DNA from: SAR202 cluster bacterium
Lineage (GTDB): Bacteria; Chloroflexota; Dehalococcoidia; Lucifugimonadales; UBA2985
Assembly (NCBI GenBank): GCA_009391535.1
Contig: VFHP01000008.1
Coordinates: forward strand, 386-64,385
Reading direction: 5' to 3'
Length of the DNA: 64,000 nt
In this document: positions 41,981-53,308 of the stretch, in pieces
How positions within the stretch are numbered: position 1 is the stretch's first letter
Layout of the letters: the number at the start of each line of letters is the position of its first letter
Notes under the pieces: generated by a model
What the model saw: the letters and a program-made list of their open reading frames with translations, nothing else
Told to the model about the DNA's origin: nothing
The model's database searches: none
Position numbers and translations under genes: made by a program

Positions 41981-43501
41981 ATGATAAACGATTCTGATAA
42001 AACTGAGAAACTCAATAATCTACTGACAAATGTGTCTGAGATATTAAAAAGCAGATCATTATTTATAGTCAGTAATAGAGGCCCTGTAGAGCATCACATA
42101 ACAAACGGCGATAGTATTGTTCCAAGGAGAAGTAGCGGTGGAGTGGTTACTGCGTTAAATCCGCTTTTTGGTTTGGGCTTTACATGGATTTCTAATGCAA
42201 TGGGTGAAGGGGACCGACGTGTGGCTAGGAACTTTGAAGGGGAGACTATAAGATCGACCATTCCAGGGCACAAATTCTCTATAAAATATGTGCTAACCTC
42301 AAGACGTGTGTATCACAAGTTCTACAATATTTTTTGTAATCCTCTGTTATGGTTTCTACATCACAACATGTGGAGTTCTCCATATACTCCTAACATCGAC
42401 AATTCAGTATATGATGCTTGGGAAACTGGATATGTGCCGGTTAACAGGGCGTTTGCGGATTCCATTATTGAAGAATGCGAAAAAAGTAATAAACCTCCTA
42501 GTGTTGTGATACATGACTATCATTTGTACATGGTTCCAGGCATGTTACGCGAATCTATACCAGAGGCAATAATTCAACAATTTATTCATATCCCTTGGCC
42601 GGATTCCAGTTACTGGCAAATGCTACCTTCAGATATAAGGACCAAGATATGTGAAAGTCTGATAATGACGGACACTGTTGCTTTTCAGAATTTCAGAGAT
42701 GTGAGGAATTTTCTTCAAAGTTGCGAAACTTTCGTACTAAATAGTGAAGTTAATTACAAGAATTGTACTGTAACGCTAAATGGCCATACAACCGAGGTGA
42801 AGTATCGACCGATGGGTATATCGATTGGCGAGGTTAGAAATATAGCGGAATCAAACAGGGCTCGTGAATACGAAGATAAATTAAGAAGTGTATTGACAGA
42901 AAATACAATAGTGAGAATAGATAGAGTCGAACCGAGCAAGAATATAATAAGAGGATTTCGTGCCTACAGATTGTTGTTGGAGAGAAACCCAGATATATTA
43001 GGAAAGGTAATATTCCTTGCTTTTATGGTGCCATCCAGAACTCATATCAGGCAATATCAAAGATATTTTCAGGAAGTAGAAGAGATAGTTGCTGAAATTA
43101 ATAATTCATTTGGTAATAGCCAGTGGAAACCAATCCTGCCATTTTATGATAACAATTATACCCAAGCCATGGCTGCTATGAAATTTTATGATGTTTTGCT
43201 GGTGAACCCCATCATGGATGGTATGAATCTTGTATCCAAGGAAGGGCCAGTTGTAAATGGTAGATCAGGTGTGCTAGTCCTTTCAGAAACTGCTGGCTCG
43301 TATGATCAGTTGAGAAACGGAGTATTGCCTGTGTCTCCGGCTGATATAGAAGGAACTTATAGGGCTTTACTTCAGGCATTAGAAATGCCGATGAGAGACC
43401 GTAAAGAAATGGAAGAAATTCTTATAGACAAAATATCTGATGAAGACGTAATTTATTGGGCAAATAAGCTATTTTCTGATTTGAAAGTGTATTCAGATTA
43501 A
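41981..43501 (+). CDS. otsA: Trehalose-6-phosphate synthase-like glycosyltransferase (GT20)
   Basis: VSNRGP, GGVVTAL, HDYHLY, FIHIPWP, RIDR.EPSKN, DGMNLVSKE, LVLSE.AG. Confidence 0.85.
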   Translation: MINDSDKTEKLNNLLTNVSEILKSRSLFIVSNRGPVEHHITNGDSIVPRRSSGGVVTALNPLFGLGFTWISNAMGEGDRRVARNFEGETIRSTIPGHKFSIKYVLTSRRVYHKFYNIFCNPLLWFLHHNMWSSPYTPNIDNSVYDAWETGYVPVNRAFADSIIEECEKSNKPPSVVIHDYHLYMVPGMLRESIPEAIIQQFIHIPWPDSSYWQMLPSDIRTKICESLIMTDTVAFQNFRDVRNFLQSCETFVLNSEVNYKNCTVTLNGHTTEVKYRPMGISIGEVRNIAESNRAREYEDKLRSVLTENTIVRIDRVEPSKNIIRGFRAYRLLLERNPDILGKVIFLAFMVPSRTHIRQYQRYFQEVEEIVAEINNSFGNSQWKPILPFYDNNYTQAMAAMKFYDVLLVNPIMDGMNLVSKEGPVVNGRSGVLVLSETAGSYDQLRNGVLPVSPADIEGTYRALLQALEMPMRDRKEMEEILIDKISDEDVIYWANKLFSDLKVYSD

Positions 43502-44862: not shown

Positions 44863-45633
44863 TTACTCTATATCGTCATCATCGTCATCGTCATCATACT
44901 CTTCTTGGTCATTTGTTCTAATTGTTGGGATGATAGCCCTGCTCTGATTACTTTTGGTTTTGGATGGAGGTAGTTTTCCGATATCATCTTTCATGGATTT
45001 TAACTCTTTTGGTTTAATTTTTTGTATATCCAAAAGTATTCCCTGTATCCCCACGTCTCTGATTACTTTTATATCGTTTTTCTGTAATGGGTTAATGCGT
45101 AGTAGTATAACTGGTTTAGATAGGAGATCTCTTATGGATCTTATGCGCATGGTGTCAATTATACTGAGGTTAGTTGTCTCTTCTATACCGGATAAGATAA
45201 TTGCATCTACGGGTATTTCATTTATCGAATGTGCAAGTTCTTCTGGTGTATCTATAGGTACTACAATAAGCTTGCCAAGATTTTCCGATGCCAATATATC
45301 AGCAGGTTCAGAAAAACTCGAAATTATAAAGAAGTCGCAACCTTCGTTTGCCAAGGACTCTAGCGAATCAGTTGATGCGTGGTTTGTCCAGATGCCCCAT
45401 ATCTGTTCTTTCAGAGTAGCATTTGTTGTTTTCAACATGGTTTTGGTGCTTTTTTGTGTTTTAACGATTGTAAAATCAAAATCATCAGCTTGATTTTTGG
45501 TCAGAGAACCTACATCAGTCAAAGCAGCTAGAGCAATCTGAGGGAATTTGTCCGCTGGTTTGCTAGTTCCAAACCCAATAGGGGTTGGAGTAACGGATCC
45601 TATTTTCTCGAGATACTCGATTATTTTACTCAT
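44863..45633 (-). CDS. Hypothetical protein, possible HpcH/aldolase-like TIM-barrel, acidic poly-Asp tail
   Basis: AGGAG RBS before MSKIIEYL; alternating beta/alpha pattern (GCDFFII, VDAIIL, GIQGILL); ends EEYDDDDDDDDIE. Confidence 0.6.
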   Translation of the reverse strand: MSKIIEYLEKIGSVTPTPIGFGTSKPADKFPQIALAALTDVGSLTKNQADDFDFTIVKTQKSTKTMLKTTNATLKEQIWGIWTNHASTDSLESLANEGCDFFIISSFSEPADILASENLGKLIVVPIDTPEELAHSINEIPVDAIILSGIEETTNLSIIDTMRIRSIRDLLSKPVILLRINPLQKNDIKVIRDVGIQGILLDIQKIKPKELKSMKDDIGKLPPSKTKSNQSRAIIPTIRTNDQEEYDDDDDDDDIE

Positions 45634-45670
45634 TAAACTTCTCCTGTTTTTCACTGAGAACCTAACAAAC

Positions 45671-45707
45671 ATAAGCCATTCCTTGGTTTACCCTCGGAAT
45701 GGCTTAT
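45671..45707 (-). terminator. Stem-loop downstream of the desulforedoxin-like gene pair (terminator or processing hairpin)
   Basis: Perfect 12-bp inverted repeat ATAAGCCATTCC / GGAATGGCTTAT, followed by GTTTGTT on minus strand. Confidence 0.6.
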
Positions 45708-45751
45708 ACTGCTTCGGTATTTAATATAATTTATAAATTAATATTATCTAA

Positions 45752-45895
45752 CTAGTCTGAAGAAGGCAGTCTTCTGGCGTCTTGCAATGCCATATCTTTT
45801 TCACAGCAAGTTGCACTTCCTTCTCCAGCTTTTGTGCATAAAACAACCGTACCACACGTGACACATTGATATCTTTTACCAAGCTCGTTAGCCAT
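45752..45895 (-). CDS. Desulforedoxin-like microprotein B (47 aa)
   Basis: Below ORF-track cutoff; MANELGKRYQCVTCGTVVLCTKAGEGSATCCEKDMALQDARRLPSSD; GGAGG RBS; C-x2-C-x15-CC. Confidence 0.85.
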   Translation of the reverse strand: MANELGKRYQCVTCGTVVLCTKAGEGSATCCEKDMALQDARRLPSSD

Positions 45896-45952
45896 TTACA
45901 AGTTCCTCCATAGTCCTTTACGTTGAGTAAAAGAGGACATTTCTAATATAAA

Positions 45953-46069
45953 TTACTTCTTCTCTGCCGGTTCCCCACAGCATGATATGGTGCCGTCACC
46001 GGCTGTAGTTACTATAAATTCGGAGCTGCAATTCTTACAAAAGTATCTTTTACCTGATTCGTTAGCCAA
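45953..46069 (-). CDS. Desulforedoxin-like microprotein A (38 aa, TTG start)
   Basis: Below ORF-track cutoff; MANESGKRYFCKNCSSEFIVTTAGDGTISCCGEPAEKK; GGAGG RBS; C-x2-C-x15-CC. Confidence 0.85.
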   Translation of the reverse strand: MANESGKRYFCKNCSSEFIVTTAGDGTISCCGEPAEKK

Positions 46070-46104
46070 TGAAATCCTCCCAAAGCATGGCTTAGTTTGT
46101 GATT

Positions 46105-46133
46105 ATTATAGCTATAGGCTTAGTAATGGTCAA
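46105..46133 (-). promoter_or_regulatory. Near-consensus sigma70 promoter of the desulforedoxin-like pair
   Basis: TTGACC-N17-TATAAT about 35 nt upstream of the first start codon. Confidence 0.75.
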
Positions 46134-46211: not shown

Positions 46212-47108
46212 ATGAAAGAAGTTAAACAGGTCAAACGCAATGGATACAATCGTTTACCTCAATGGTTTAAGGTTCCCATGTCTGGAGGCTCAAACTTTGT
46301 TGAACTCAAGAATTTATTGAAATCTGGTGGCCTAAACACTGTTTGCATAGAAGCCAAATGCCCCAACATCGGGGACTGTTGGGAGGATCGTAGTGCTACT
46401 TTTATGATATTAGGAGAAATATGTACACGGGCTTGTAGATACTGTGCTGTTAGTACTGGTAGACCCTCCATGCTAGATTTAGATGAACCGAGGCGATTAG
46501 CTGAGAGTGTAGAAAAGTTGAACTTGGAGTATTGCGTCATAACATCTGTAGACCGTGATGACTTATTGGACGGCGGGGCTAGTATTTTCGCAGAATCTAT
46601 CAAGAGGATAAGATCAAAGTTGCCTTTTTGCGAAATAGAAGTTTTAATACCTGATTTTCAAGGCTCTGAAATCTCTTTACTAACTGTTCTAAGTGCTATG
46701 CCGAACGTCCTTAATCACAATATTGAAACCGTAGAAAGAATATTTCCTATGGTGAGGCCTCGGGGCGATTATTCACAATCCCTTTCGTTGTTAAAGAAAG
46801 TGAAGGAACAATATTCACACATTGTAACTAAATCAGGAATGATGGTCGGATTAGGCGAAGAATCAGATGAAATTTTGGAGACCATGTATAATCTGAGATC
46901 AGCAGGATGTGATCTATTGACTATCGGTCAATATTTGCAACCTTCCCAGAAACATTTTCCTGTGTCGAGATTTTATACACCTGAAGAGTTTGATCATATC
47001 AAAGTAGAGGCTGAAAAACTTGGATTCACTAACGTGACTTCAGGCCCTTTGGTGCGTAGTTCATATCGAGCCGGCAAACAATTACATTCCTTTCTCTCTA
47101 ATGGATAG
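46212..47108 (+). CDS. lipA: Lipoyl synthase
   Basis: C-x4-C-x5-C (CIEAKCPNIGDC), CTRACRYC radical-SAM motif, SVDRDDL, RSSY. Confidence 0.97.
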   Translation: MKEVKQVKRNGYNRLPQWFKVPMSGGSNFVELKNLLKSGGLNTVCIEAKCPNIGDCWEDRSATFMILGEICTRACRYCAVSTGRPSMLDLDEPRRLAESVEKLNLEYCVITSVDRDDLLDGGASIFAESIKRIRSKLPFCEIEVLIPDFQGSEISLLTVLSAMPNVLNHNIETVERIFPMVRPRGDYSQSLSLLKKVKEQYSHIVTKSGMMVGLGEESDEILETMYNLRSAGCDLLTIGQYLQPSQKHFPVSRFYTPEEFDHIKVEAEKLGFTNVTSGPLVRSSYRAGKQLHSFLSNG

Positions 47109-47110
47109 CT

Positions 47111-48685
47111 GTGATGTATGAGTCGCGACAGACTTTATGTTTATACAACGGTAATATAATAACGATGGATCCAGTAGCTCCACAGGCTTCTTGGCTAACC
47201 GTTGACGGAAGATTTATTAGTAAAGTTGGAACAGGGATTCCACCGTTTGATAATTTACCTGGCGACACCCATTACATAGATTGTTTGGGTCGAACTGTTC
47301 TGCCGGGTTTCAACGATTCTCATACTCACATACTTTCCAGCGTGGCGCATGAAACAGCGGTGAATTGTAGCCCATCTTCAGTGAACTCTATAGAGGATAT
47401 AAAGACTAAATTGAGCGACTTTTCCAAGCTTCTACCCAAAGGGCATTGGATTAGGGCAGTAGGATACGATGAATTCCATCTTGAAGATTCGAGGCACCCC
47501 ACCCGCTGGGATTTAGATGATGCCATACCTGATTATCCAGTAAAATTGATTCATAGGTCTGGTCATGCGATGGTGTTGAACAGTTTAGCTATGAATATAG
47601 CTGGAATAACAGATAGTACTGTTGATCCTGTAGGTTCCGTTATAGAGAGGCAACATTTGACAGGCACTCCAACTGGATTACTTTTTGATATGAACGATTA
47701 TATTAGTAAAGTCACTCCTGCATTGTCTGAAGAAGATATATCCATAGGGCTAGGGCGTTACAACGAACTATGTTTATCATATGGACTGACTTCTTTAAAC
47801 GATGCCAGTATCAATAACGATTTAATGAAAATGGATTTACTCAAAGGATTCAAGGAAAACGGTACTCTAGTTCCTTCAATAAATTTTATGGTAGGGATTG
47901 ATCATCTGGAAGATTTTCTGAGAAAAGGTATTAAGTTTGGTGACGGATTGGACAGTTTTAGAATTGGTTCTGTTAAAATCGTATTAAGTTTGACTACCGG
48001 GGTTTTAGATCCAGGAAAAAAAGAATTGAGGAGTTTGATAGGATACGCTAATCGGAATGGATTTCAAGTTGCCATCCATGCTGTTGAAAACGAGTCGATT
48101 ATGGAGGCCGTATCTGCACTGGAAGATTCCGGAAGTGATGAGATTGTTAACGGGTTTCGGAACAGGATAGAACATTGTTCGGAATGTACACCGGATCTCA
48201 TGAATAGAATTATTAAGAATAACATTGGTGTTTCTACCCAACCTGGTTTCCTCTATTACAATGGTCAAAGATACTTAGCTGAAGTGGATGAACGGTATAA
48301 AGAGTTTTTATACCCGATAGGTTCTTTTATTGAAGCTGGTGTCACTTTAGCTTATGGATCGGACAGTCCAGTTATACCAATGAATCCGATGGTTGGTATA
48401 TCAACTGCTGTTAACCGATTTTCCAGATCAGGCGATCTAATGCAGCCTTGGGAGCGCGTTTCAGTATTAAATGCGATAAAATCTTATACAGTTGACAGTG
48501 CGTATTTGTCTTGGCAAGACAAGGTTAGGGGATCAATATCGGAGGGGAAAATTGCAGATATAATTCTAGTGGATAGCAATCCGTTAGGAATTCCACCAAA
48601 GGAAATAATCAATGTAAAAGTATTAATGACCGTGGTTGAAGGTGCAGTAGCATGGATTGACGGTGAAAGGTTCAATATTGTATAG
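47111..48685 (+). CDS. Amidohydrolase_3 family (YtcJ-like) metal-dependent hydrolase
   Basis: PGFNDSHTH, SGH....NS.A, IHAV, RIEH, GSDSP, G.I.EGK.AD. Confidence 0.9.
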   Translation: MMYESRQTLCLYNGNIITMDPVAPQASWLTVDGRFISKVGTGIPPFDNLPGDTHYIDCLGRTVLPGFNDSHTHILSSVAHETAVNCSPSSVNSIEDIKTKLSDFSKLLPKGHWIRAVGYDEFHLEDSRHPTRWDLDDAIPDYPVKLIHRSGHAMVLNSLAMNIAGITDSTVDPVGSVIERQHLTGTPTGLLFDMNDYISKVTPALSEEDISIGLGRYNELCLSYGLTSLNDASINNDLMKMDLLKGFKENGTLVPSINFMVGIDHLEDFLRKGIKFGDGLDSFRIGSVKIVLSLTTGVLDPGKKELRSLIGYANRNGFQVAIHAVENESIMEAVSALEDSGSDEIVNGFRNRIEHCSECTPDLMNRIIKNNIGVSTQPGFLYYNGQRYLAEVDERYKEFLYPIGSFIEAGVTLAYGSDSPVIPMNPMVGISTAVNRFSRSGDLMQPWERVSVLNAIKSYTVDSAYLSWQDKVRGSISEGKIADIILVDSNPLGIPPKEIINVKVLMTVVEGAVAWIDGERFNIV

Positions 48686-53233: not shown

Positions 53234-53308
53234 TGGTAGCGGGGGTTGGATTTGAACCAACGACCTTCGGGTTATGAGCCCGACGAGCTGCCACTGCTCC
53301 ACCCCGCG
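53234..53308 (-). tRNA. Initiator tRNA-fMet(CAT)
   Basis: CGCGGGG 5' end with C1:A72 mismatch, three G-C pairs in the anticodon stem, CT-CAT-AA, CCA end. Confidence 0.96.

Follow-up and report, generated by a model that had tools for sequence, protein, structure and literature searches.

Two short open reading frames on the minus strand of a 64,000-nucleotide stretch of DNA from a SAR202 cluster bacterium (the whole stretch analysed, here called the window) encode what is apparently an undescribed two-part protein family, A-B, in which a known fold has taken on a new role; the pair is likely to be a helper subunit of an acyl-CoA pathway and not an electron carrier. Desulforedoxin is known as an iron-redox module; in several phyla its fold appears to have been put to another use, as a partner of acyl-CoA enzymes without a redox function. 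Searches of the literature (mainly open-access articles) found no account of the family, the matches for desulforedoxin-like proteins being on C. difficile, and the ESM Atlas returned only unnamed or Desulfoferrod_N clusters. Genes of this length escape routine annotation, and the family label that A and B carry is misleading.

ORF A (45953..46069, minus strand, 38 aa) is a desulforedoxin-motif half without a tail and starts with TTG, not ATG; ORF B (45752..45895, minus strand, 47 aa) is a desulforedoxin-fold half that starts with ATG and carries a C-terminal tail ending in Asp. Each has a GGAGG ribosome-binding site, recognised from sequence (A, 46076..46080; B, 45905..45909; both minus strand), the pair has a near-consensus sigma-70 promoter (TTGACC-N17-TATAAT, 46105..46133, minus strand, 11/12 matches), and a 12-bp hairpin lies 3' of B (45671..45707, minus strand, region z = -6.1); all of these were located where the original prediction had placed them. 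Both peptides contain C-x2-C-x15-C-C, again as predicted, and B has in addition a fifth Cys (C20) and a tail ending LPSSD. The promoter ranked first among 10 promoter-like sites in 3 kb, a count at chance level (9.0 expected), and was kept in 17/17 loci compared; class-wide, a strict promoter pattern was present in 60/76 A-B loci and in 0/76 control stretches, and 14 of the 16 loci that it missed carry a TTGAA...TATAAT variant. Among 77 loci, A starts with TTG in 48, GTG in 27 and ATG in 2, whereas B starts mostly with ATG, a difference between B and the TTG or GTG of A (75/77) which suggests that the amounts of the two halves are tuned. The hairpin was kept within the genus and a similar stem was seen in 4/14 other loci compared; it gave no intrinsic-terminator call from sequence and no Rfam family match, and may be a weak terminator or an mRNA-stabilising stem. 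A 151-nt metatranscriptome contig identical to 45661-45811 spans the end of B and the hairpin, may be DNA and was not counted as expression; one metatranscriptome contained 0.11 of the locus words.

Both ORFs were confirmed to be real genes under purifying selection. Mean pN was 0.15 for A and 0.12 for B against a pS of 0.75 (17 loci), nonsynonymous changes being 5-6 times rarer than synonymous ones, and within the genus A showed 0 nonsynonymous changes (synonymous 1 and 3) while B showed 0 and 1 (synonymous 8 and 9). In the search against Desulfoferrod_N (PF06397) that had been proposed, both peptides passed the Pfam cut-off of 23 bits (26.5 and 27.8) and were the only matches above it in the 1.36-Mb window genome (89.6% complete); the cut-off of TIGR00319 (36.05) was not reached (20.7 and 25.4), and among solved chains both matched D. 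gigas desulforedoxin (E 0.0006 and 0.002). The expected paired conservation was also observed. A Pfam search over 41 genomes of the order matched 32 and returned 30 loci, A lying directly upstream of B in 29 of them (the exception is from a 62%-complete genome), and among 80 further loci, the best 80 of 199 as picked by tail pattern, 78 carry the A-B pair and two B alone. The loci closest to the A-B locus are from Dehalococcoidia, and these carry the module as a single, strongly conserved copy. Across 15 genomes A reached 64% with other A proteins and 51% with its own B; A is thus nearer to other A proteins than to its partner, which points to an old duplication with both types retained.

The desulforedoxin fold was assigned to B by model and to A by sequence only; the B model superposed on 1cfw_A with Z 6.1 and rmsd 0.7 over 36 aligned residues, and its tail had no secondary structure. 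In 59 B sequences, a set partly gathered through the tail, G6, R8 and D47, the last residue, were each found in 59/59, whereas the four Cys ligands were kept in 55, 55, 56 and 41, the fourth position being Cys in 41, His in 9 and Asp in 8. The Cys positions are thus not constant across the family. The fifth Cys of B that the original prediction had noted is present in 46/59 sequences and so not invariant. Among the best 80 of 199 loci, His replaced the last Cys in 10 A and 14 B genes. Only 0-1 Cys remained in 14/39 aligned fusions of the two halves (see below), and CxxC was absent from the B half in 82/192 tail-bearing proteins and also from the unfused B genes of three genomes (G222, G254, G374). 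In the 30 loci that the Pfam search had picked up without use of the tail, B ended LPSSD in 27 and LPSAD and LPSSV in one each, and one gene was cut short. From these alignments the metal site appears dispensable family-wide and the Asp-ending tail nearly invariant. Every A and B gene examined from genomes that we label SAR202-type retains three or four ligands, and the metal may therefore matter in this lineage. Lipoyl-lysine, acyl-serine and the fifth Cys were considered as attachment sites and rejected, none being invariant.

Single-chain A-B fusions of 81-110 aa, with an A-like half first and a B-like half second, were found in Chloroflexota, Actinomycetota and Alphaproteobacteria, including plasmid-borne forms in Rhodococcus, Mycobacterium branderi, Streptomyces, Sphingobium and Sphingomonas. 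A aligned with the first half and B with the second (hhalign, 99.0% and 99.8%); the fusion alignment comprised 39 rows hand-picked from 89 matches, and P0011-P0016, which look like stop read-through of split pairs, were left out. Desulforedoxin is a homodimer, and given these natural fusions an A-B heterodimer follows as a plain inference: A and B probably form one, which supports the heterodimeric part of the original prediction. A model of a two-Cys fusion (pLDDT 94.6) had desulforedoxin as its top structural match, with a weak Z of 3.2 and an rmsd of 1.1 over 36/36 residues; Foldseek gave no match for the fused-protein model, and the fusion-family profile had no real match among solved chains. 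Four longer matches, including amidohydrolase plus small protein and small protein plus a scrambled ligase, were rejected as frameshift artefacts; being single records with low-complexity linkers, they show adjacency and not fusion. A third architecture of about 110 aa joins an unnamed helical N-terminal domain to a B domain with the same tail (P0127, P0133, P0155, P0156, P0160, P0166, P0186 and others), one such protein coming from the candidate phylum Candidatus Wildermuthbacteria.

Partners had been expected beside the pair; the co-inherited crotonase and ligase are instead encoded on another contig of the window genome (G000), in an operon of two crotonases followed by an acyl-CoA ligase (G000:C5:25475-28680), and in single-contig relatives such as G007 the pair and this operon are about 650 kb apart. 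Across the 16 other families of the order, crotonase-2 was concordant with the pair in 16/16 (the same nine positive), the ligase in 15/16 (the nine plus one 82%-complete genome) and an amidohydrolase (E <= 1e-100) in 15/16 (8/9 pair families, 0/7 pair-less ones). The module was carried by 26 of 401 genomes of the phylum (29 matches minus three plain desulforedoxins). All 22 crotonase-2 matches at E <= 1e-48, a cut-off set after the orthologue scores had been seen and with six candidates scored per genome, fell in pair-positive genomes, as did 19 of the 20 best ligase matches across the 401 genomes; a ligase of the clade described below was present in 21/26 pair-positive genomes. The amidohydrolase search gave lower-scoring matches in three module-free genomes as well. 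Kinship makes the genomes non-independent, which inflates these counts and makes Fisher values overstate the association. Five genomes that are 95-99% complete (G111, G174, G270, G294, G342) keep the pair, crotonase-2 and amidohydrolase and have no clade ligase, which shows that the pair is not simply a ligase subunit; in three of them (G111, G174, G342) it stands directly behind family-I CoA-transferase subunits.

The window itself encodes the Amidohydro_3 protein behind lipA (47111..48685, plus strand), which is co-inherited with the pair and likely belongs to the same pathway; a protein of the same family follows B in distant operons, the order ligase-A-B-amidohydrolase being found in six distant Chloroflexota (G128, G155, G173, G181, G325, G373), mostly with crotonase and CaiB-type genes nearby. 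In 7/8 annotated plasmid loci read, of 19 records found, the fused gene adjoins a ligase gene. Within 8 kb, the actinobacterial and sphingomonad plasmid loci had neither a close crotonase-2 (best 35%) nor an Amidohydro_3 relative. No enzyme is thus a partner in every lineage, and the differing enzyme sets across lineages indicate that the pair belongs to a pathway. Of the partners, the ligase has the broadest range, and within Chloroflexota the crotonase is the tightest. A membrane Fe-S oxidoreductase of about 700 aa, with weak TfrB/LdhH likeness, recurs beside the ligase (L237:4059-6146 and eight other ligase loci).

A tree of 56 ligases (quick IQ-TREE run) separated a 29-row clade (SH-aLRT 100), made up of the G000 ligase, the ligases of module-bearing Chloroflexota and seven plasmid ligases, from 27 others, among which were the best-scoring ligases of module-free genomes. 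Arg224 was present in 29/29 clade ligases and 0/27 outside, and Arg420 in the 29 clade ligases and three outside; both are possible candidate partners of the acidic B tail. Clade ligases have a loop of 27-33 residues after the A5 motif, where carrier-dependent fatty acyl-AMP ligases have their insertion; loops of 25-30 residues were also found in 4/17 scorable outgroup ligases. The G000 ligase passes the PRK06187 cut-off and the clade has an invariant Lys486 in a C-terminal basic loop, a residue of a kind assigned to CoA phosphate binding (PMC8460268). By these marks the clade enzyme still looks like a CoA ligase. The two crotonases are adjacent (L121:5476-7052, G000:C5:25475-27051) and complementary in sequence: crotonase-2 orthologues keep both catalytic Glu positions and mostly have no C-terminal F-x-E-K-R-x-P-x-F element, presumably CoA-binding in crotonases, while crotonase-1 orthologues keep this element and have no second Glu where the pattern read the site. 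It is likely that the adjacent crotonases form a heteromeric enzyme.

We tentatively favour, with confidence a little short of even, a reading of A-B as a non-catalytic adaptor of the acyl-CoA pathway, that is, a desulforedoxin-type heterodimer in which the metal is likely structural and the Asp tail docks on enzymes. A and B would dimerise like desulforedoxin into a compact body with a single tail, and the metal would serve only to stabilise the A-B fold. The tail and the G-K-R-Y face would bind the acid-activating enzyme (the ligase or, in genomes that lack it, a CoA-transferase) as well as the crotonase, and A-B would stimulate the bound enzymes or hand acyl-CoA from one to the other, the order of the pathway probably being amide, acid, acyl-CoA and hydrated acyl-CoA. 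Two known kinds of helper are comparable. DUF35 is the zinc-ribbon/OB-fold scaffold of thiolase complexes and resembles A-B as a small zinc-ribbon helper of acyl-CoA enzymes, and genes annotated Zn-ribbon OB-fold share plasmid clusters with the fused form; A-B, in contrast, has no OB fold and is partnered with ligase and crotonase. MbtH-like proteins are small, have conserved Trp, and bind and activate adenylating enzymes, the dependent ones failing in assays without MbtH. They are like A-B in being small accessory proteins that adjoin an adenylating enzyme, whereas A and B have no Pfam MbtH match, no Trp and no NRPS alongside, and the pair persists without the ligase. If the ligases or crotonases of this clade do need the small protein, assays of them in its absence would fail; the fused form occurs next to the ligase in strains of Rhodococcus, Streptomyces and Sphingobium that are in culture, which makes the matter directly testable.

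A covalent carrier like LysW is the first alternative and is considered unlikely: the ligase or CoA-transferase would activate the terminal Asp of B, and the pathway intermediate, bound there as amide or thioester, would pass the crotonases and be released by the amidohydrolase. The layout is that of LysW, which combines a small Cys-metal domain with an acidic last residue that is invariant (PMC10433800). A-B shares with LysW/ArgW the Cys-metal domain, the invariant acidic end (D47) and the ligase and amide hydrolase alongside. The unstructured tail in the model, the near-consensus promoter retained across the class, the long loop of the clade ligase at the fatty acyl-AMP ligase insertion site, and a pair that tracks several enzymes, outlives loss of the ligase and stands behind CoA-transferase subunits would all suit a carrier, which would account for both the invariant last Asp and the amidohydrolase. 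It leaves unaccounted for, however, the CoA marks of the ligase, namely the PRK06187 match and Lys486, and the long loop is shared by ligases outside the clade. A-B also differs from LysW/ArgW in belonging to another fold family (no Pfam or NCBIfam match of A or B to the LysW family), in a tail ending LPSSD with no EDWGE motif and in a two-part body; its ligase is adenylate-forming, no LysX/ArgX ATP-grasp ligase was among the recurrent neighbours of the pair, and loading is in A-B a proposal. The tail Ser (SAD and ASD variants) and the TKAG Lys (Lys22, kept in 50/59 B sequences) are not invariant, so the Asp alone could serve as loading site. It is doubtful that A-B is a new carrier class with a desulforedoxin fold, its Asp loaded by a dedicated adenylate-forming ligase, or in other lineages by a CoA-transferase, and conveying the intermediate via the split crotonase to the amidohydrolase; if true, SAR202-type Dehalococcoidia would have a core pathway that has gone unrecognised, and related forms of it would exist in Rhodococcus, Mycobacterium, Streptomyces and sphingomonads.

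The original prediction had proposed an Fe/Zn redox carrier or sensor, and that part of it is not supported, in view of the ligand-free orthologues. A one-electron Fe(Cys)4 carrier or redox sensor like desulforedoxin is improbable. A and B do have the exact CX2CX15CC motif, as named in PMC3116461, they pass the Pfam cut-off with the same fold, and the ligands are kept throughout this order. With desulforedoxin of Desulfovibrio gigas (PDB 1dxg/1cfw) and desulfoferrodoxin centre-I (PF06397) they have in common this motif, a fold of about 36 residues and small size, and differ from them in that A and B are diverged paralogues whose order is fixed and which are often fused, that the tail is invariant, that many orthologues have lost ligands, that no SOR accompanies them and that they are tied to acyl-CoA enzymes. 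A redox role is unlikely for the family because orthologues lose every metal ligand yet keep the tail; replacement of the last Cys by His likewise speaks against it, as does the non-redox character of the co-inherited enzymes. The prediction had noted no SOR domain in the window, and the catalytic domain (PF01880) was absent from the whole window genome and from all 41 genomes (0/41), control genomes being positive; rubrerythrin and catalase gave no match in G000 with the queries used. The pair also contrasts with plain, single, tail-less desulforedoxins in three other Dehalococcoidia (L149, L150, L151), which adjoin catalase-, peroxiredoxin- and rubrerythrin-like genes (labels read from sequences).

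Similarly improbable is a tail-dependent inhibitor or regulator, in which the terminal carboxylate of B would mimic the acid substrate and block the ligase or CoA-transferase until release, perhaps on loss of metal or oxidation. The free carboxylate is invariant, the pair has its own strong promoter apart from the enzyme operon in this order, and a sirtuin deacylase lies inside the ligase operon, between crotonases and ligase, in four genomes (L224:7882-8658, L225, L226, L241), which makes regulation of the ligase probable. In distant lineages, on the other hand, the pair is co-transcribed immediately after or ahead of the ligase, and this suits the stoichiometric helper of the adaptor reading better; metal-free forms would be unable to sense metal.

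That the pair serves LipA or lipoate metabolism, by Fe/S supply or through an acylated Lys in TKAG, is highly improbable: lipA (46212..47108, plus strand) does lie within 4 kb of the pair in 49/80 loci (best 80 of 199) in two arrangements (23 divergent upstream, 26 convergent downstream), but it occurs in 16/16 other families of the order against 9/16 for the pair, seven of the families with lipA thus being pair-less, it is not adjacent to the pair in distant operons or plasmid loci, and Lys22 is Arg in 6/59 B sequences. The gene is a neighbour of the pair and not its partner, contrary to the service to LipA that had been suggested. The other suggested client, the downstream 269-aa unnamed Chloroflexota protein (44863..45672, minus strand, faint HpcH/HpaI likeness), adjoins the pair in only 17/80 loci (best 80 of 199) and is probably outside the module; it has an acidic C-terminal run, and its homologues favour the second ATG (45633) as start. 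On the plus strand, glycine cleavage system-like genes (T, H, P1, P2; 37519-41808 of the window) lie with the next gene 4-9 kb from lipA, that next gene being trehalose-6-phosphate synthase-like (41981-43501, plus strand); both labels are from translations. A tRNA-Met was located at 53234-53308 of the window, and rRNA-like sequence was seen beyond about 53500.
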